The notes beneath the pieces were generated by a model. That model was not told the origin of the DNA. It searched no databases and saw only the letters and a program-made list of their open reading frames with translations. A DNA stretch of 64,000 nucleotides, taken from an uncultured Verrucomicrobiae bacterium (lineage in GTDB: Bacteria > Verrucomicrobiota > Verrucomicrobiia > Chthoniobacterales > Chthoniobacteraceae). Below, piece after piece: positions 3,688 through 16,847 of this stretch. The stretch is taken from the NCBI GenBank assembly GCA_963836755.1, contig CAWIKF010000001.1, forward strand, positions 544,001-608,000, read 5' to 3'. Position numbers and translations under genes: made by a program. The first letter of the stretch is position 1, and each line of letters starts with the position of its first letter.

Positions 3688-4990
3688 GACGAAACCACTG
3701 CCACGAAGGACGAGGCAAACCCGCACTGATGCCGAAGCTGCGGTTTCCGGAGTTTCGGGATGCCGATGAGTGGACAGAGAAGCCCCTTGAAGCAGCAGCA
3801 CACATCAATCCGGCAAACGGCGGTCGCCGAAGACATTCGTCTATATCGACCTCGAGTCGGTCGCTACGGCGGAGTTGAAAGCAAAGGAACGAATTATCCC
3901 GAATCGGTGCACCAAGCCGTGCCCAAGGCTCGTGCGAACGCGGTGACATCATTTACCAAGTCGATTCGCCTCTACCAACGGCGACAACCTGCTTTGCGAG
4001 TTTGATGACGATGAAAACTACGTCGCATCTACGGGCTATGCTCGACTTCGAGGGCTAAGGGCAGTAATCGCGTTCTTTGCTATCATCGAGCATCCACACC
4101 GATTCCGTTTGTCGGAAGGGTCATCGCGAAGTGCACGGGTTCCAATTACCCAGCGATCAATTCATCGGACTTGGCAGAGATCACATCTGCCGATTCCACC
4201 CGACGCTCCCCGAACAACAGAAAATCGCCGAGTGCCTGAGTTCGGTGGACGAGCTGATCGCCGCGCAAGCGCGGAAAGTGGACGCGCTCAAGACCCATAA
4301 AAAAGGGCTGATGCAGCAGCTTTTCCCCCGCGAAGGCGAAACCCAACCCCGCCTCCGCTTCCCCGAATTCCAAAACGCCGGGGAGTGGGTTGCGAAACCC
4401 TTGGGCGAGATTTTTCCAATTTCCTCATCGAAGCGAGTCCACGAGTCAGACTGGACTTCGACAGGAGTGCCATTCTATCGAGCTCGTGAGATCATTGCGT
4501 CAACAACACGAGCCGATTCAACCTTGTTCATCAGCGAAGAGCTTTACGCTGAATTCAGCAAGCAGACTCGAGAAATCCGCGACGGACACTTACTGGTCAT
4601 GGCGTTGGCTCGATTGGCCGTTCCCTACTTGGTGAGAGCCGGAGATCGTTTCTACTTCAAGGACGGCAACATCATCTGGCTCAAAAATGACGGGAAGGAG
4701 CTGAGCGGAGAGTTTCTGCATTGCCTTTACGAAACCGATTGCGTTCAGAAACAGCTCAAGGCGATGGCTGATGTCGGAACAGTAGCAACCTACACCATCG
4801 ACAACGCGAAAAGAACGCTAGCCGTCTTTCCGTCCGGACAAAGCCGAACAACAACGCATCGGCTCGTGCCTGAGCAGCCTCGACACCCTGATCACCGCCG
4901 AAACCCAAAAGCTCGAAGCCCTCAAGACCCACAAGAAAGGCCTGATGCAGCAGCTTTTCCCATCCCCCGACGAGCACCACAAGCCCATGA
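3677..4990 (+). CDS. hsdS: Type I restriction-modification specificity subunit S, frameshifted
   Basis: PKLRFPEF near the start, EQQKIAECLSSVDELI...KKGLMQQLFP, a second PRLRFPEF, and a second conserved KKGLMQQLFP block. The two TRDs have lower GC. The end coordinate is approximate. Confidence 0.85.
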
Positions 4991-5559
4991 ACATCCAGGA
5001 AGTCATCCAGACGATCAACCAGATGCAGGCGGATGGCAATCATCGACAGCTATGCCATCGGACGGAAGACCGCTCGAGGGAGCCGACCTTCACACCTGGA
5101 GCCGAGCTTTTCCACGCTCGATGTGATATCTTCGTCTGATACTTTCCCGCACCGAGGCGGGCTCCCTGCTCATCCAGTCCCCGTCCCAGCTTTACGATTA
5201 CCTCACCGCGCGGGGCTGCACTGCGGAGGGCGAATACATCATCATCGCGGGCTGGCCGGTGCAGTTCCTCCCGCCCACGGGACCGCTCGCGGAGGAGGCT
5301 CTGGACAGAAGCCGCTGTGCACGATGTCGCGGGCGTTCCGGCCCGGGTCTTTTCGGCGAGAACTTATCTCGCCGCCATCGCGCTGCAAGACCGGACGCGC
5401 CGAAAGACAAGGCCCGGCTGCTCCAGTATCATCGAATCCGGTATCTCTTGATGCAACCACGGACGAATTCCGACGGAACTGCATCCTCACCCGGCACGCG
5501 CTCACGGCATCGGTGGGAGCAATTCCAGCGACAGCTTCAACTCTCCGACAACCACATGA
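4987..5559 (+). CDS. Putative nucleotidyltransferase-fold protein (RM cargo), frameshifted
   Basis: Stitched across frames: MNIQEVIQTINQMQADG.IDSYAIG...EP..STLDVDIFV...LYDYLTARGCTAEGEYIIIAGWPVQFLPPTGPLAEEAL...KDKARLLQ. The YAIG(G)...T.DVD pattern is NTase-like. Confidence 0.55.
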
Positions 5560-5763
5560 CTCACCGATCATCCAGAGCATCCTCGGAAGAGCAAGCGCCG
5601 CTACCGGCAGCTGCCTCGCCGCGGCGCCACCATCGCCGAGAATCAACTCCGGGATGCTCGATGCCCTGCGCGAGCGGGCTCTACTTTTGCGCCCTAGAGT
5701 CGGCAGTCCATCGTCCCGCGAAGAGCCGACACCCTATCACGCAGGACAAACCCCGCACCATGA
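5556..5763 (+). CDS. Small basic helical hypothetical protein, ATGA-coupled to the NTase-like gene and to hsdM; frameshifted
   Basis: Stitched reading: PIIQSIL..KRRYRQ.LAA.P...LRMLDALRERALLLRP...REEPTPY. ATGA overlaps at 5556-5559 and 5760-5763. Confidence 0.4.
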
Positions 5764-7386
5764 CCGACACCAACCAAAAACAACTGGGCAAGACCCTCTG
5801 GAGCATCGCCGACCAACTGCGCGGGGCGATGAACGCGGACGATTTCCGCGATTACATGCTGTCGTTCCTGTTCCTGCGCTACCTCTCGGACAACTACGAG
5901 ACGGCGGCGAAGAAGGAACTGGGGCAGGATTACCCCGATGCTGACGCGACGGCAACGGCCGCAGTGCCGCTGGCGCTCTGGTATGCGAACAACCCGGACG
6001 ACGTCGCCGGCGTTCGAGAAGCAGATGCGGCGCAAGGTGCATTACGTCATCAAGCCCGAGCACCTCTGGACCAGCATCGCCAACATGGCCCGCACGCAGA
6101 ACGCCGAACTGCTCAACACGCTGCAGGCGGGCTTCAAGTACATCGAGAACGAATCCTTCCAGAGCACGTTTCAGGGCCTGTTCTCGGAGATCAATCTCGG
6201 CTCCGACAAGCTGGGCAAGACCTACGCCGACCGCAACGCCAAGCTCTGCATCGATCATCCAGAAGATCGCCGAAGGGCTTGGCGGAGTTCTCGACCGATA
6301 TCGACACGCTGGGCGACGCCTACGAGTACCTGATCGGCCAGTTCGCCGCCGGGTCCGGCAAGAAGGCGGGCGAGTTCTACACGCCGCAGCAGATCTCCGA
6401 CATCCTCTCGGCCATCGTCACGCTCGACAGCCAGGAACCGAAGACCGGCAAGAAGAAGCGGCTGGACAGCGTGATGGACTTCGCCTGCGGCTCCGGCTCG
6501 CTGCTGCTGAACGTGCGCAAGCGCATGGGGCCGCACGGCGATCGGCAAGATCTACGGGCAGGAAAAGAACATCACCACCTACAACCTCGCGCGCATGAAC
6601 ATGCTGCTGCACGGGGTGAAGGACACGGAGTTCGAAATCTACCACGGCGACACGCTGACCAACGACTGGGACATGCTGCGCGAGCCGAACCCGGCCAAGA
6701 AGCCGCAGCTTCGACGCCGTGGTCGCCAATCCGCCCTTCAGCTACCGCTGGGAGCCGACCGAGGCGATGGGCGACGACGTGCGGTTCAAGAACTACGGGC
6801 TCGCCCCCAAGTCCGCCGCCGACTTCGCCTTCCTGCTGCACGGCTTCCACTACCTGAAGGACGAAGGGGTGATGGCGATCATCCTGCCCCACGGCGTGCT
6901 GTTCCGCGGCGGCGCCGAGGAACGCATCCGCACCAAGCTGCTCAAGGACGGCCACATCGACACCGTCATCGGCCTGCCCGCGAACCTGTTCTACTCGACC
7001 GGCATCCCGGTCTGCATCCTCGTGCTGAAGAAGTGCAAGAAGCCGGACGACGTGCTGTTCATCAACGCCGCCGAGCACTTCGTGAAAGGGCAAGCGGCAG
7101 AACCAACTGACGCGACGAGCACATCGCGAAGATCATCGACACCTACCAGTACCGAAAGGAAGAGGATCGCTACTCCCGCCGCGTGGAGATGGAGGAGATC
7201 GAGAAGAACGACTTCAACCTGAACATCTCCCGCTACATCAGCACAGCGATAGGTGAAGAAGAGATCGACTTGGTAGAGACTCACAAAGAACTCGTGGAAA
7301 TCGAAGAAAAGGTCAAAGCTGCTGCAACCAAGCATAACCGGTTCCTCAAGGAGCTAGGCCTAGACCCGCTGCCCTTCGGCGATTAA
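5760..7386 (+). CDS. hsdM: Type I restriction-modification N6-adenine methyltransferase subunit M, frameshifted
   Basis: LWSIADQLRGAM, LGDAYEYLIGQFAAGSGKKAGEFYTP, DFACGSGSLL (SAM binding), VANPPFS (catalytic motif), NDFNLNISRYI. Confidence 0.92.

Positions 7387-9982: not shown

Positions 9983-9986
<4 letters not shown>
9507..9986 (+). CDS. Peroxiredoxin (AhpC/TSA family)
   Basis: [19 protein letters not shown] (PxxxTxxC), GISVD. Confidence 0.9.
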
Positions 9987-12841
<2,855 letters not shown>

Positions 12842-12843
12842 AC

Positions 12844-13656
12844 TTACGAGTCTGCAAGGATGCAATCGAGGATCTGGGTCAGGTCCTCGTTATGCTGCTG
12901 CGAGGCGATCCCAAAGGCGCTGACGATATCGAGGAGAAAATCCGCATTCTCTTTCGTGAATCGATAAGTCACCGTTTCCTTCGAATGGGCAGGGCCCGTC
13001 GGCCGAGGCCCACCTGCCGGCGTGCGCAACTCGGCCATGTTCAAACAGACGTAAATCATTGCCTGGTTTCCCACCGCGCGCTGCTTCGGCTTCAACTCGA
13101 TCTCGACACGGCCGTGCGCGTCTTCCTTCGAAAAAATTGGCACCTGCTCGACAGATTTTTCAAATCCGCCGGGCACGTCCTCATGCGCAGATTTTTCGAC
13201 CGTGATCTTTTCCTCGGTTTCGAGATTCGCGTCGTGCGAACGCGCGAGAAATGCGCGCGCGTGCAACAGTTGATCGCGGCTGATCAAGCCCAGTCGCAGC
13301 GCCTCGACGAGAATCTTTGCAAGCTCGATGCCATATTTTGTTTCGCCTTTTCGCTGAAAGCGAACTCCCGCAGCGACTGAAGGATGATGCGCGTCGAGCG
13401 AGTCGTAACCGATTTGCCACTCGAGAAAATCATCCGCATTGAGCGAAGTGTGCAGAGGCGAAACTGGAACGCTGAGGCCACCGGGATGCCGTTGCTTTAG
13501 CCGAACTTTTCCTGTGACGTCAGTGAGCGGAAGCCGCACCACGACTGCATCTCCAACTGTTTCGATGCGGACAGTTTTATAATCCGCATCTGCGCCGCGA
13601 GCGTTGATCGCGAGCGCGATGAGCAGCGCGCCGGCGAGATTCCTCAGCCGCGCCAC
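12844..13656 (-). CDS. R.PabI-family (HALFPIPE) restriction DNA glycosylase homologue with N-terminal signal peptide
   Basis: Collinear R.PabI-type motifs: VVVRLPLT, GKVRLK, LEWQIGYD, YGIELAKIL...GLIS, KQRAVGNQAMIYVC, AFGIASQQHNEDL. GTG start abuts the upstream TAG. Confidence 0.88.
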   Translation of the reverse strand: MARLRNLAGALLIALAINARGADADYKTVRIETVGDAVVVRLPLTDVTGKVRLKQRHPGGLSVPVSPLHTSLNADDFLEWQIGYDSLDAHHPSVAAGVRFQRKGETKYGIELAKILVEALRLGLISRDQLLHARAFLARSHDANLETEEKITVEKSAHEDVPGGFEKSVEQVPIFSKEDAHGRVEIELKPKQRAVGNQAMIYVCLNMAELRTPAGGPRPTGPAHSKETVTYRFTKENADFLLDIVSAFGIASQQHNEDLTQILDCILADS

Positions 13657-16095
13657 CTACTTGATCAACTGCTCCAGCGCCGTGTCGGCCTCCGCGCCGA
13701 GCCCGACGGCGCGCTTATAGTATTTGCTCGCCATTTCCTTGTTCGGGGGCTGCATCGTCGCGTAGATCACCGCGAGGTTGAAGTTCGCGTCGGCGTAATT
13801 TGGATCGAGCGCAATCGCAGTCTGCAATTCCTTGAGAGCCGCTTCCTGCCAGCCTTTTTGGCTCGCCGTGATGCCGAGATAATTGTGCGCGATCGCGTCC
13901 TTCGGCGTGATGGCCACGGCAGCCGTGAGCGCGGTAACCGCCTGGTCGTATTTCCCTTCCTGGTAATAAACGATGCCGAGCGTGCGATGGGAAAATGAAT
14001 CGCCGGGCGCGACCGCGATTGCTTTTTTAAACTTTTCCTCCGCGAGTTTCATTTTGTTCTGCCGGAAATCGACTACGCCGAGGTTGGACAAAATGTAAAC
14101 ATTGTTTGGCGCCTTCGTAAGCATCTGCTCATACGTTTTCTCCGCGTCGCGATATTGCCCACGATCGAACTGGTCCTTCGCATCGCGCGCCGCGCCGAGC
14201 AGATCGTCCGGAACGTTCGGGTTCGTCGACGTTTCCACCTGCGGAGGATTACCCGCGCCCGCGGCGGTTTTGTCGCCGCTGTCCGCGCCAGATTGCTGCG
14301 TGACTGCGGATGGCGATGGGTTCGCGCTTGCCAGGTCTGAATTCGGTGATGCTGCGGTGGAAGTCGGAGAGGCATGCGGCTTTGCAGAGTTTCCAGATGC
14401 TTCCGGTTTCGGTGCGGCGACGGAAAATTCCATGGCCGCCGAATCGGTGTCCGCGATTTCGATTTGCGGCTGTTTAAACAACGCCTTTTCCTTGTCTGTC
14501 AGCTTCACAACCGGCTGGCCGAGGTAATCGATTTCCTGCAGCAGCGTGCCCGAGCGGACCTGAAGCCCTTGAAGCTCGGAAAGCACGAGCTTTTTCGCCT
14601 GCTCGCGACGCGCCTGCTCCTTGAGCTGACGCACCACGATCCCGCGGAGCAACTCGTTTTCTTCTGTGTATTTTTTCTTTTCCTCGCTGCTCGCGCCGCT
14701 GGTTTGCATCGCCACCAATTCCGCCTTCGCGCCGTCGAGCTGCTTTTGCAAATTCGCCATCGAAGCTTGGTATCCGGCGCTTTGCTTTTGTGCCGAGGCG
14801 AGCAAGTCCTTCGTGTCGGTCACTTCTTTCCGCAGCGCCGCGATCTGCTGATCCTTTTCTGGCGCGCTGGCGTTAAAGTCGTGAATCGTCTTTTCTGCCT
14901 CGCCGAGTTTTCGCGAAAGCGTCGCGTTGTCTGCCATGAGCTGATCGACCTTTTTCTGCGCGTCACGCGCCTTTGCGAGATCGGCGAGAGCCTGATCACG
15001 CTGCTTCGCAATGCTGTCGCGTTCGGCGCTGACAGACGCGATCTGCGCCTGCGCCTCTGAAACTTTTTTGTTTAAATCATCCGATTCCTTGCGCGCCGCG
15101 TCGCGTTCCTTGCCGAGAACAGCGAGCTGTTTCTGCGCATCCGCGAGCTTCTTTGAAACTTCCTCGCTCGCGGCGTGCGTGAATTGATTTTCCTGCGTCA
15201 GCTTGCTGATTTGCGCTTTCGCGTCGGCCAGTTCCTGCGTCACTTTGGAAGCGTTCGCATATTTCGCTTCGAGGTCTTTCAATTTGTTCGCCGCGTCCTG
15301 CCGTTCCTGCTGCACGCTCGTTACGGTCTTGCGCACCTTCGACAAACGCCGCGCGTAATCGCTATTCACCGTGTCCGCCGCCTCGCGATCCGCCTGCGCG
15401 TCCTCGAGTTGATTCTGCAATTGCGCGATCTGCTTTTTCATCGCGTCGCTGTCGGCGCTGTTTCCGGGCGCATTGTTTTGCAAAGCCTGCTGCAGCTGTT
15501 GCAGCTTCGCCTTCAATTCCGCCACGCTTGTTCTATTTTGGACGAGCTGCTTGAGGGCTTCGCCAAGCTGCGCGGCCATCTTTTCCTTTTGCTGCTGCAC
15601 TGTCTGCAATTGCTGCCGCGAGTCGCGCAGATCATTTTGCAATTGATCGATGCGGCCCTTGATGTCGCTCGCCGCATCGTCCGTCCGCTGCGGCAATGGC
15701 TCAGTCGGCAGCGACGCGGTCGACTGCTCCTTTTGCGGCATCGGGACATCCGGCTCGACGACCGCGCCGCCGTTTCCGGATGCCTCTGGCGGTTGGTTGC
15801 CGACCTGCTGCTCGAGCCGCGCGATGCTTTCACTCGTGCGCTTTTTGCGATACTCGACGATCAGCGGTTGCCAGTTCGGATACTTTTGTCCGATTTGATC
15901 GAGCAACGTCGCGGCATAGCGATATTTCGCAAGCGCCGGTGCCGCGCGCCCGCTTTGCTCCAGACCCTCGCCCTGCTGCACTGCCATGTAGGCATTTAGA
16001 AAAAGATCCGATGGGTCGCTCGATTGCGCGCGGACTTTGCCCGGCGACCCGAGAGAAAAAACCAGCAAAGCGAGGAAAACCAGAATGCGCCGCAT
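13657..16095 (-). CDS. Exported coiled-coil protein with C-terminal TPR repeats
   Basis: Signal peptide MRRILVFLALLVFSL, long Q/K/A-rich heptads, TPRs (ILSNLGVV, SHRTLGIVYYQEGKYDQA, AHNYLGI, ANFNLAVIY). Confidence 0.85.
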   Translation of the reverse strand: MRRILVFLALLVFSLGSPGKVRAQSSDPSDLFLNAYMAVQQGEGLEQSGRAAPALAKYRYAATLLDQIGQKYPNWQPLIVEYRKKRTSESIARLEQQVGNQPPEASGNGGAVVEPDVPMPQKEQSTASLPTEPLPQRTDDAASDIKGRIDQLQNDLRDSRQQLQTVQQQKEKMAAQLGEALKQLVQNRTSVAELKAKLQQLQQALQNNAPGNSADSDAMKKQIAQLQNQLEDAQADREAADTVNSDYARRLSKVRKTVTSVQQERQDAANKLKDLEAKYANASKVTQELADAKAQISKLTQENQFTHAASEEVSKKLADAQKQLAVLGKERDAARKESDDLNKKVSEAQAQIASVSAERDSIAKQRDQALADLAKARDAQKKVDQLMADNATLSRKLGEAEKTIHDFNASAPEKDQQIAALRKEVTDTKDLLASAQKQSAGYQASMANLQKQLDGAKAELVAMQTSGASSEEKKKYTEENELLRGIVVRQLKEQARREQAKKLVLSELQGLQVRSGTLLQEIDYLGQPVVKLTDKEKALFKQPQIEIADTDSAAMEFSVAAPKPEASGNSAKPHASPTSTAASPNSDLASANPSPSAVTQQSGADSGDKTAAGAGNPPQVETSTNPNVPDDLLGAARDAKDQFDRGQYRDAEKTYEQMLTKAPNNVYILSNLGVVDFRQNKMKLAEEKFKKAIAVAPGDSFSHRTLGIVYYQEGKYDQAVTALTAAVAITPKDAIAHNYLGITASQKGWQEAALKELQTAIALDPNYADANFNLAVIYATMQPPNKEMASKYYKRAVGLGAEADTALEQLIK

Positions 16096-16247
16096 CGGAA
16101 AAGGTGACGACACTAGCTTAAGTCGCAGGGCGATGCAAACGATTCTCATCGCCGCGCAGCCCTTTATTCATGCGGGTTCCACAGCTTTCGCGGCAATTGA
16201 CACTTCCCGCGCCGAATGGTAGGTTGCCCGCAAATTTTCAAACCCAA

Positions 16248-16847
16248 ATGTTAGACCGGCAAGTCCTCGTCCTCAATCGACTCTGGCAGGCGGTCAATGT
16301 CTGCACCGTTCGCCGCGCCTTCACGCTTCTGTGTCAAGGCCACGCACAAGTCGTCTCCTCCGACGCGCAAAACAACTTTCTCACGCATGACTTTTCGAGC
16401 TGGCACGCGTTTTCGCAGCGCGAGCCCGAGGACGAGATGGTCCACACGATCTCGTTCAAAATCCGCATCCCCCGCGTGATCGTTCTTTTGCTTTTTGATC
16501 GCCTGCCGAAAAAGGAAGTCAAATTCACGAGGCACAATATTTTCGAGCGCGACAAAAACACCTGCCAATACTGCGGGCAGATTTTCGACCGCAAAGACCT
16601 CAACCTCGACCACGTCATCCCGCGCGAAAAAGGCGGCCTCACCACGTGGGAAAACATTGTTTGCTCCTGCATCCCGTGCAACACGCGCAAGGGAAACAAA
16701 CTTCCGCACCAGGCGCACATGCAGCTCATTCGCAAACCCGAGCGCCCGCGCTGGCGGCCGTTCCTGCATCTCACATTCCATGGGCATCACGAAAGTTGGC
16801 GGCACTTCATCGACCTCGCTTACTGGAACGTCGAGCTGGGCGATTAA
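16248..16847 (+). CDS. HNH endonuclease (McrA-like/HNH_5 family)
   Basis: VLVLN, FTRHNIFERDKNTCQYCG, LNLDHVIPREKGGLTTWENIVCSCIPCNTRKGN. Confidence 0.9.
   Translation: MLDRQVLVLNRLWQAVNVCTVRRAFTLLCQGHAQVVSSDAQNNFLTHDFSSWHAFSQREPEDEMVHTISFKIRIPRVIVLLLFDRLPKKEVKFTRHNIFERDKNTCQYCGQIFDRKDLNLDHVIPREKGGLTTWENIVCSCIPCNTRKGNKLPHQAHMQLIRKPERPRWRPFLHLTFHGHHESWRHFIDLAYWNVELGD

Follow-up and report, generated by a model that had tools for sequence, protein, structure and literature searches.

Restriction enzymes are by textbook account cytoplasmic and need a partner methylase, and an active restriction enzyme without its methylase is normally lethal. How, then, can a bacterium keep a restriction glycosylase that has no partner methyltransferase and that starts with what appears to be an export signal? 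The question is raised by a gene at positions 12844–13656 (minus strand) of a 64,000-nucleotide stretch of contig CAWIKF010000001.1, here called the window, from an uncultured Verrucomicrobiae soil bacterium with a 3.18-Mb genome (58% G+C, 96.1% complete, four contigs). Its open reading frame (ORF), with the stop codon at 12844–12846, encodes a 270-aa pre-protein of the PabI (HALFPIPE) family of adenine glycosylase/abasic-site (AP) lyases. As described below, a free-living Verrucomicrobiota clade has long kept this restriction glycosylase intact and without a methylase, a predicted export signal is found on every complete copy in the clade, and in nearly all host genomes the 4-bp target, GTAC, is gone down to the level of codon choice.

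The initial annotation of the window had placed the ORF in the R.PabI family on the basis of six motifs, all of which occur in the expected order (AVVVRLPLT, GKVR, EWQIGY, ELAKILVEALRLGL, KQRAVGNQAMIYVC and AFGIASQQHNED), and profile searches and structure prediction bear this placement out. The protein matches Pfam RE_R_Pab1 (PF09522) with 56.1 bits, against a curated cut-off of 25 bits. In phmmer comparisons with the PDB, residues 40–267 align with residues 10–237 of 7cfa (R.CcoLI; E 1.5e-22) and residues 36–268 align with 2dvy (R.PabI; E 2.2e-16). The PADLOC profile REase_II also matches the ORF (E 2.4e-19), and a search of NCBIfam returned no family. An AlphaFold2 monomer model made with 25 homologues has a predicted local distance difference test score (pLDDT) of 89.7 and a predicted template modelling score of 0.84. 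When this model is compared with the PDB by Foldseek, all 16 matches with E ≤ 0.001 are PabI or CcoLI chains, with template modelling (TM) scores to the target of 0.71–0.81. The best is 3waz_B (E 5e-16, TM 0.81), 7cfa_A follows with a TM score of 0.80, and the first match outside the PabI family has an E-value of 0.015. The window protein is a full-length member of the PabI family, with a resemblance far beyond chance.

Conservation extends to the residues that matter for catalysis and sequence recognition. For R.CcoLI, the available portion of PMC7806768 (here and below, articles are cited for the portions available) describes (i) the catalytic residues Tyr52, His222 and Asp225, equivalent to PabI Tyr68, His211 and Asp214; (ii) an AP-lyase residue, Lys71, in a β insertion typical of mesophilic enzymes, with Asp53 beside it and (iii) recognition of G by Lys17, Arg19, Glu47, Gln49 and Tyr168, of T by Gln164 and Met166, of A by Ile50 and Phe215 and of C by Gln158. 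We mapped these positions through the phmmer alignment to 7cfa, where the chain index is the residue number plus 3, and used an alignment of 25 homologous sequences (A1) for conservation. The triad falls on Y84, H255 and D258, with Y84 and D258 invariant and H255 at least 90% conserved, and the inserted QR pair on Q192 and R193, so that the equivalents proposed initially for the three PabI catalytic residues and for this pair are found in place. K107 takes the position of CcoLI Lys71 and D85 that of Asp53; both are invariant, and the mesophile-type β insertion is present and four residues longer than that of CcoLI. All ten recognition residues shared by PabI and CcoLI are kept (K50, R52, E79, Q81 and Y202 for G; Q198 and M200 for T; I82 and F248 for A; Q192 for C), each of them invariant or at least 90% conserved. 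Judged by these positions, the window protein resembles a bifunctional enzyme that is both an adenine glycosylase for GTAC and an AP lyase. The specificity implied by the recognition residues is indirectly supported by the genome itself, since GTAC alone has been purged from it (see below).

Ahead of the mature catalytic domain (residues 22–270; 12847–13593, minus strand; mapped via the 7cfa alignment) stands a leader, (M/V)ARLRNLAGALLIALAINARGA, that we predict to be a Sec-type signal peptide cleaved by signal peptidase I (residues 1–21; 13594–13656, minus strand). Beginning with the GTG start, it has an n-region with R3 and R5 and an h-region from L7 to I17. The predicted cut, A19-R20-G21↓A22-D-A-D-Y-K, is placed by homology with the clade pattern A-x-A↓A-D-(T/A)-(E/D)-Y-K. 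In the structural model, residues 2–27 form an N-terminal helix with a lower pLDDT of 71–78. Homologous proteins number 755 at E ≤ 0.001; among the 120 matches listed, identities are 50–67%, lengths are 241–410 aa and the names, where given, are Verrucomicrobia or Limisphaerales 'R.Pab1 family' or hypothetical proteins. All 25 aligned homologues show a variable hydrophobic N-terminus followed by the conserved cleavage pattern.

We extended this comparison to related loci from species-representative genomes (84 relatives, of which 80, L015–L094, were kept) and called a leader where the start codon is followed by a basic n-region and then a hydrophobic stretch ahead of the domain. Leaders are present in 64 of the 80 loci and, on inspection, in L038, which the pattern missed. 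Eight loci carry leaderless distant homologues of 241–247 aa (29–37% identity) that start within a few residues of the domain. In the remaining seven, the gene is cut by a contig end (L037, L070 and L092), is frameshifted or garbled (L082, L083 and L086) or has an ambiguous start (L020). Among scored leaders with the Y-K landmark, all 60 have K or R within 8 residues before an uncharged run of 11–32 residues (median 16), and 55 of 60 obey the −1/−3 rule (A, G, S or C at −1, with a permitted residue at −3). The leader sequence varies among homologues and its n-h-c character is constant. By these calls, which come from heuristics of our own and not from a dedicated signal-peptide predictor, the leader is predicted to be a canonical Sec-type signal peptide and a conserved feature of the clade. 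A mis-called start is rejected: a stop codon lies in frame before the GTG, the first internal methionine is residue 200, and the leader recurs in homologues. The initial annotation had also noted that no ATG lies between the leader and the domain. A Tat signal and a lipoprotein are likewise rejected, as the homologues have neither a twin-arginine motif nor a conserved lipobox cysteine. In the three frameshifted or garbled loci the N-terminal part of the glycosylase is out of frame or garbled and the DNA is still free of GTAC (0 versus 9–16 expected); these are either pseudogenes or assembly errors.

Does the enzyme have a partner methylase? In seven of the eight leaderless loci (L085, L087–L091 and L093), a PF01555 N6/N4 methylase lies directly downstream on the same strand, and in the eighth, L094 from Campylobacteraceae, a gene with a weak resemblance to PF02384 lies upstream. 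None of the 64 leader-bearing loci has an intact adjacent PF01555 methylase; only L076 has one at all, in three frameshifted pieces. At that locus (7893–9500 of L076, G437:C28), the broken methylase is of the cognate type and sits directly downstream of the leader-bearing gene; the genome has near-normal GTAC, with a ratio of observed to expected sites (O/E) of 0.77. The locus may represent a stage on the way from a restriction–modification (R-M) pair to the solitary, putatively exported enzyme; alternatively, assembly errors may have produced it.

The window genome was searched with PF01555, PF02086, PF02384, a profile of cognate-type methylases (A2) and tblastn. PF01555 finds only two fragments with stops, one of them with no ORF; A2 finds only a 30-residue remnant (E 0.002), with which tblastn agrees; PF02086 finds no match; and PF02384 finds a frameshifted type I hsdM in the window and one 19-bit match elsewhere. 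These four profile searches thus reveal no intact candidate GTAC methyltransferase in the 96%-complete genome, and the claim that a cognate enzyme is missing can be widened from the neighborhood to the genome, where only remnants occur and none is adjacent. The broader statement that no methyltransferase is nearby needs amending: it stands for a cognate GTAC-type enzyme, but a decayed type I R-M locus (4077–7251) lies 5.6 kb away, with an hsdS fragment at 4077–5126 and an hsdM that several frameshifts have broken up into four frames at about 5.7–7.25 kb of the window. The N6_Mtase match in the window is this hsdM, accompanied by the hsdS fragment, and is rejected as the GTAC partner. An intact Type ISP enzyme (1,445 aa, with an Eco57I-type methylase domain) is encoded in a mobile island of the window genome. 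The window gene is a member of the PabI protein family and not of a PabI-type R-M system.

The host genome bears a strong imprint of the putative target. The 3.18-Mb genome contains 72 copies of GTAC, compared with about 3,633 predicted from trinucleotides, an O/E of 0.020. This is the lowest ratio among the 256 tetramers; the next are CTAA/TTAG at 0.60 and CTAG, the next palindrome, at 0.62. Site avoidance had been a guess of the initial annotation and proves to be extreme. It is present in all three codon frames, as seen in 1,602 long ORFs: (i) the tyrosine codon TAC is used in 27 of 1,911 cases (1.4%) after a codon ending in G, versus 55–65% otherwise; (ii) the valine codon GTA is used in 4 of 12,439 cases before a codon starting with C, versus 6–10% otherwise and (iii) NGT precedes ACN in 8 of 4,536 cases, versus 7–10% before other codons starting with A. 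The loss of GTAC is among the most complete tetranucleotide purges measurable in our analysis. A search for a mutational signature of the purge, comparing GTTC/GAAC or other one-off neighbors with relatives, gave uninformative ratios of 0.95–1.14.

The sites that remain are clustered. Of the 72, the single rRNA operon accounts for 13, a 24-kb glycoside-hydrolase stretch (C2:377.9–401.5 kb) for 31, a 42-kb integrase-bounded mobile island (C2:1257.7–1299.4 kb) for 20 and the decayed type I R-M locus described above for three; the rest are three within 66 bp at C2:778.4 kb and a few scattered singles. Within the 64-kb window, GTAC occurs nowhere outside this decayed locus, which has three copies (6138, 6326 and 7149); the locus therefore appears to have been acquired fairly recently and then to have decayed. 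The glycoside-hydrolase block (G000 C2:377902–401510; L117 and L118) encodes GH2, GH92 and rhamnosidase-like proteins among unknown genes, and was probably acquired horizontally and not purged yet. The mobile island (G000 C2:1257679–1299438; L119–L121) starts at a phage-type integrase and encodes a Prim-Pol/D5 primase, a PD-(D/E)XK nuclease and a ligase-like protein, together with GmrSD, HEPN, an Mrr fragment, the Type ISP enzyme, NERD and PLD; a DUF4145 gene and a PF01555 fragment lie just upstream. Around the triplet at G000 C2:778406–778472 the surroundings are free of GTAC, and an Rfam search finds only a tRNA ~1.3 kb away.

The same imprint is found in other carriers. Taken together, the 64 leader-bearing loci (808,203 bases) have 45 GTAC sites versus 919 expected, with zero in 56 of them; without L027, L051 and L076, the remaining 61 have 6 versus 865. 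In three carriers (G001, G002 and G021), stretches far from the gene have 0 GTAC versus 6.8, 5.1 and 25.7 expected. By comparison, 13 genomes of the same family in which the gene was not detected have 251 sites versus 432 in 246,875 bases, for an O/E of 0.58 (range 0.24–0.98); left out of this pool are G004 (only 1.5 kb), G016 (8 versus 32.2), G017 (8 versus 13.4) and G024, which is discussed below. The eight leaderless loci show partial avoidance (39 versus 133). The purge travels with the gene, with exceptions that we return to when weighing the interpretations.

How long has the gene been in place? In a quick, unrooted IQ-TREE analysis of 78 rows, all 71 leader-bearing rows are on one side of a branch with a Shimodaira–Hasegawa-like approximate likelihood ratio (SH-aLRT) of 89, and six leaderless methylase-linked homologues form a clade (SH-aLRT 95), with the Campylobacteraceae sequence outside it. 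The aconitase gene acnA turns up in the flanking DNA retrieved for 34 of 83 loci, in 30 of them on the opposite strand, and this linkage is seen in both Chthoniobacter-like and Limisphaerales/Pedosphaera-like genomes. Other neighbors are housekeeping genes that differ by lineage. A location among core genes had been remarked on from the window alone, and our survey of related loci finds this synteny conserved across orders. For 20 loci, pairwise identities of acnA (69–96%) and the glycosylase (47–92%) are correlated (Spearman 0.58; 0 of 999 Mantel permutations as high). Given this synteny and co-divergence, the glycosylase gene is a long-term resident beside acnA.

The distribution of the gene is patchy: it is present in 4 of 41 sampled relatives, including 3 of 3 in its own genus. 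A phylum-wide sample has a PabI homologue in 9 of 401 genomes, and the eight outside the window genome are all leaderless and 25–32% identical. Among 1.84 billion representative proteins the PabI family as a whole is small, with 229 clusters at E ≤ 0.001, of which 16 reach E ≤ 1e-30; leader-bearing forms are among the top few. A plausible history is that a classical R-M pair gained a signal peptide once, that the methylase then decayed and that inheritance has since been mostly vertical. Some cluster members are long or fused PabI-domain proteins (P0155, P0167, P0186 and P0216); one, of 1,813 aa, has 17 matched stretches, and others of 407, 624 and 352 aa have the domain at the C-terminus. Several metagenome-assembled genomes that carry the gene (L017, L019, L021, L026, L027, L029, L032, L034, L041, L044, L063, L066 and others) have titles such as Klebsiella, Bifidobacteriaceae, Akkermansia muciniphila, Methylomirabilota and Proteobacteria; these look like mislabels, as their glycosylase and acnA cluster with Limisphaerales/Pedosphaera.

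In the window, acnA (9983–12841, plus strand; Pfam Aconitase, E 4.5e-159) converges on the glycosylase gene, and the two stop codons are 2 nt apart. On the other side, the GTG start (13654–13656) follows in frame directly after the TAG stop (13657–13659) of a co-oriented gene for an 830-aa protein (13657–16149, minus strand; TPR_11, E 1e-21) with a signal-like N-terminus, a long coiled coil and TPR repeats at the C-terminus. The 270-aa ORF, the abutting start and the convergence are all as first described. Because the TAG stop abuts the GTG start, the TPR/coiled-coil gene is likely an operon partner of the glycosylase, in its own lineage only. As a general functional partner it is rejected, being upstream only in the Chthoniobacter-like lineage (five loci in three genomes: L002/L015, L003/L079 and L004); upstream genes in other lineages include peptidase M16, PSCyt/DUF1553 with DUF1501, and LplA with PDH E1. 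Divergent from the TPR/coiled-coil gene is an HNH-type gene (16170–16847, plus strand, 225 aa), which stays next to it, at 83–85% identity, in the two nearest relatives (L015 and L079). An RsmB/F-like methyltransferase is downstream in 18 loci; it belongs to an RNA methylase family, is on the opposite strand and is absent from the window, and we regard it as synteny only. No RNA dataset matched the stretch; the only matches were four DNA runs, from soil or other sources, with shares of 0.40 or less.

How might such a gene be tolerated and maintained? We lean, with some reserve, towards a GTAC glycosylase/AP lyase that is exported by the Sec pathway and works with no methylase, its host being safe through removal of the enzyme combined with absence of the site. 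We infer its export, activity, DNA target and the maintenance of the purge as follows. The enzyme would excise adenine at GTAC and cleave the abasic site via Lys107, as R.CcoLI and R.HpyAXII do. The pre-protein would leave the cytoplasm by means of its cleavable signal peptide, and the active dimer would assemble in the periplasm, where it would damage double-stranded DNA containing GTAC: environmental or transforming DNA and possibly phage DNA. The host's own DNA would be spared both by the enzyme being out of the cytoplasm and by the genome being purged of GTAC, so that 'self' would be signified by absence of the site and not by methylation. Residual exposure could keep up the purge, through a leak of precursor onto the chromosome or through a bias in uptake and recombination against GTAC-bearing DNA from kin, destroyed in the periplasm. 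The present data fit either route.

Two observations are most simply reconciled by an enzyme that is kept out of the cytoplasm, as the conserved leader predicts. In Helicobacter pylori, HpyAXII coexists with 114–184 GTAC sites, which is >50-fold below expectation and includes 20–22 in rRNA genes, and cells with an active restriction gene do not survive deletion of the methylase (PMC2588503); here, similar site numbers persist without a methylase in many species. In addition, four carriers of the gene keep thousands of sites. That the purge is maintained, and not just inherited, follows from its completeness at synonymous positions in lineages whose acnA is only ~69% identical, and therefore some exposure of the chromosome or gene pool continues. 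An intact comEC is present in the window genome, and comEC is widespread. We rank restriction or processing of periplasmic DNA first among the possible roles, ahead of antagonism. There are no linked secretion or immunity genes, and a Sec leader alone reaches only the periplasm. Together, the solitary enzyme and the purged genome suggest discrimination between own and foreign DNA without chemical marking.

A more ambitious version, which we put forward tentatively, is that the base-excision enzyme may destroy GTAC-bearing DNA in the periplasm before it can enter the cytoplasm. This would be a methylation-free, compartment-based form of restriction, with the self-maintained absence of a word acting as a molecular drive: kin DNA with GTAC would be cut during uptake and could not spread, the reverse of the process by which uptake sequences are enriched. 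Such an arrangement could also serve as a secreted weapon with genome recoding as the sole immunity.

Several points weigh against the exported, methylase-free enzyme that we favor. Phages usually inject their DNA in such a way that it does not pass freely through the periplasm, which makes an anti-phage role doubtful. The leader call, and with it the putative export, depends on our own heuristics. A maintained purge implies exposure of the chromosome or gene pool, which is uneasy with clean compartmentalization. Protection by compartment plus site avoidance had been the initial proposal; the conserved leader is consistent with the first element and the extreme avoidance bears out the second, but the compartment alone fails to explain a maintained purge, and the two protections are not always combined. 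In particular, four carriers, each assessed over 60 kb, are unpurged, with O/E values of 0.48 in G435 (L027), 0.49 in G436 (L051), 0.32 in G438 (L037) and 0.77 in G437 (L076), and these are the genomes that keep thousands of sites. The proteins of G435, G436 and G438 form one clade (SH-aLRT 97) nested among purged ones, and they look intact. The loci concerned (L027, L037, L051 and L092) come from large genomes of 6.3–7.9 Mb with GTAC mildly depleted (O/E 0.32–0.49), and in L037 and L051 there are GTAC sites inside the glycosylase gene itself. G435 has an intact but distant PF01555 gene elsewhere (27–30% identity), and the genome of G436 has no match to the A2 profile.

Conversely, a genome of the same family without the gene is purged: G024 (6.1 Mb, 98% complete) has 1 GTAC versus 96.7 expected in 73.6 kb (L114, L142–L144, L152 and L153), with no homologue found by protein, PF09522 or A1 query and no remnant beside acnA. 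The gene may have been lost recently or may have escaped assembly, or another enzyme directed at GTAC may be at work. For the window genome, a methyltransferase or other modification of a kind we do not recognize is also possible, this genome being 96% complete and its mobile island encoding the Type ISP protein. Finally, the position of PabI Tyr134, initially flagged as replaced, is V172 in the window protein and V, I, L or T across the clade. The caveat is correct as a fact of alignment; the residue is outside the catalytic and recognition lists for CcoLI, and the available portions of PMC7229829 and PMC7806768 make no mention of a role for it.

Among the alternatives, export for a purpose other than restriction accounts equally well for the leader, the missing methylase and the purge. 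The enzyme would be a periplasmic or secreted DNase serving nutrition or the remodeling of extracellular DNA, or a bacteriocin-like weapon to which site loss confers immunity; mutual exposure of sister cells would give a strong and lasting purge, and a review speculates that enzymes of this kind could escape from the cell to target other bacteria (PMC10273834). We nevertheless consider this rather unlikely. The neighbors of the gene are housekeeping genes of lineage-specific identity, with no recurrent linked secretion, uptake or immunity genes; a Sec leader alone leads only to the periplasm; and the 13 rRNA and 51 island sites would stay targets. If instead the solitary enzyme worked in the cytoplasm, either because the N-terminal segment does not direct export or because the enzyme acts before export, a near-complete and maintained purge would be expected from direct exposure of the chromosome, and survival would depend on near-zero sites and base-excision repair. 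PacI, whose host has no sites, offers a precedent (PMC3488263). This arrangement is improbable given that all 60 scored homologues retain an n-h-c leader with a −1/−3 cleavage motif, variable in sequence and constant in character, which the methylase-linked relatives lack. It would also have to accommodate 72 sites without a methylase, 13 of them in essential rRNA genes, and four carriers with O/E values of 0.3–0.8, although a restriction enzyme without its methylase is lethal in H. pylori at a similar site number (PMC2588503).

The purge could also be a relic of an ancestral cytoplasmic R-M system that lost its methylase, leaving a protein that no longer cuts and may only bind DNA or act otherwise outside the cytoplasm. 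Depletion can indeed outlast the enzyme, as gene-less purged genomes show (G024 here and H. hepaticus in PMC2588503), the Tyr134 equivalent is replaced, and frameshifted copies occur in the GTAC-free loci L082, L083 and L086. We find a relic very unlikely, however, because the triad, the AP-lyase lysine and the ten recognition residues are (nearly) invariant in a clade at about 47–60% identity, and because depletion at synonymous sites is complete at ~69% acnA identity, which indicates continuing pressure and not a fading imprint. No more credible is an ordinary split R-M system, with the GTAC modification enzyme encoded elsewhere, in unassembled DNA or from another family. The genome is 96.1% complete in four contigs, the searches covered PF01555, PF02086, PF02384 and the A2 profile only, and G435 has its intact distant PF01555 gene; yet the window genome has no intact match to the searched families, none is adjacent in the 64 leader loci apart from the frameshifted L076, and G436 is without any A2 match. 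Protection would, moreover, make a 50-fold purge unnecessary, although the two occur together in H. pylori.

Should the enzyme prove to be exported and active, as we favor, it would provide the first demonstrated case of a restriction-type enzyme at work outside the cytoplasm, distinguishing self from non-self by site absence and not by epigenetic marks, and it would bear on the speculation that restriction glycosylases leave their producer (PMC10273834). The clade also offers a natural system for studying how an enzyme can recode a genome, and the GTAC-bearing islands stand out against the purged background and could serve as a marker for dating acquired DNA. Several elements of this picture have been seen before: GTAC avoidance in PabI hosts with sites concentrated in rRNA genes, 'ghost' avoidance in a Helicobacter relative without the gene, H. 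hepaticus (PMC2588503 and PMC10273834), and a solitary enzyme with an absent site in PacI (PMC3488263). Database records already name homologues 'R.Pab1 family restriction endonuclease'. In the literature searched, mostly outside subscription journals, we found no published PabI clade in Verrucomicrobiota, no signal peptide on any member and no stable methylase-less inheritance; the available text of a 2015 survey (PMC4615327) contains none of 'Verrucomicrobi', 'signal', 'solitary' or 'orphan', and that of PMC10273834 does not contain 'signal peptide'.

Comparison with known systems delimits what is shared and what differs. R.CcoLI (Campylobacter coli, 7CFA), R.HpyAXII (H. pylori) and R.PabI (Pyrococcus abyssi) have in common with the window protein the family, the fold, the Tyr/His/Asp triad and the ten recognition residues, and the two mesophilic enzymes also share the β insertion with the AP-lyase lysine. 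The H. pylori host, like ours, avoids GTAC >50-fold and retains sites in rRNA genes. Unlike all three enzymes, the window protein has a predicted Sec signal peptide and no partner methyltransferase. R.HpyAXII is functional in only about 20% of isolates (PMC10273834), whereas nearly all carriers in the window clade have an intact gene. As in the window clade, the family is described in Helicobacter and Campylobacter as inherited over the long term at one fixed locus (PMC4615327). A 2023 review places the family in Helicobacteraceae and Campylobacteraceae and a few hyperthermophilic archaea and states that it 'lacks linked secretion genes' (PMC10273834); the window clade, in Verrucomicrobiota, widens the PabI family beyond these hosts. 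The nearest relatives outside the clade, with the same domain and 30–37% identity, are the leaderless PabI–PF01555 pairs (L085, L087–L091 and L093) of Verrucomicrobiota, Planctomycetota, Poribacteria and Zixibacteria. These differ in their length of 241–247 aa, the lack of a leader, an intact downstream methylase and only partial GTAC depletion, and the decaying methylase of L076 is of the type found in them.

Outside the family, PacI of Pseudomonas alcaligenes belongs to the HNH family and has an 8-bp, all-A/T site, the absence of which from a G+C-rich genome needs little selection. Like the system proposed here, it combines restriction without a methyltransferase with protection of the host through a missing site (PMC3488263). 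In our case, a 4-bp site expected ~3,600 times has been removed in all codon frames, 72 copies remain and the enzyme has a predicted export signal. The compartment and role proposed for the window enzyme are also those of exported nucleases that limit DNA uptake.

Such nucleases include Escherichia coli endonuclease I (EndA) and Vibrio cholerae Dns and Xds, which are Sec-exported, non-specific and meet DNA outside the cytoplasm. Their folds are unrelated, they lack sequence specificity and they hydrolyze phosphodiester bonds instead of excising bases, and we know of no imprint that they leave on the genome composition of their producers. What is new here is thus a known enzyme family in a new architecture, predicted to be exported, solitary and vertically inherited, coupled to a near-total purge of GTAC.

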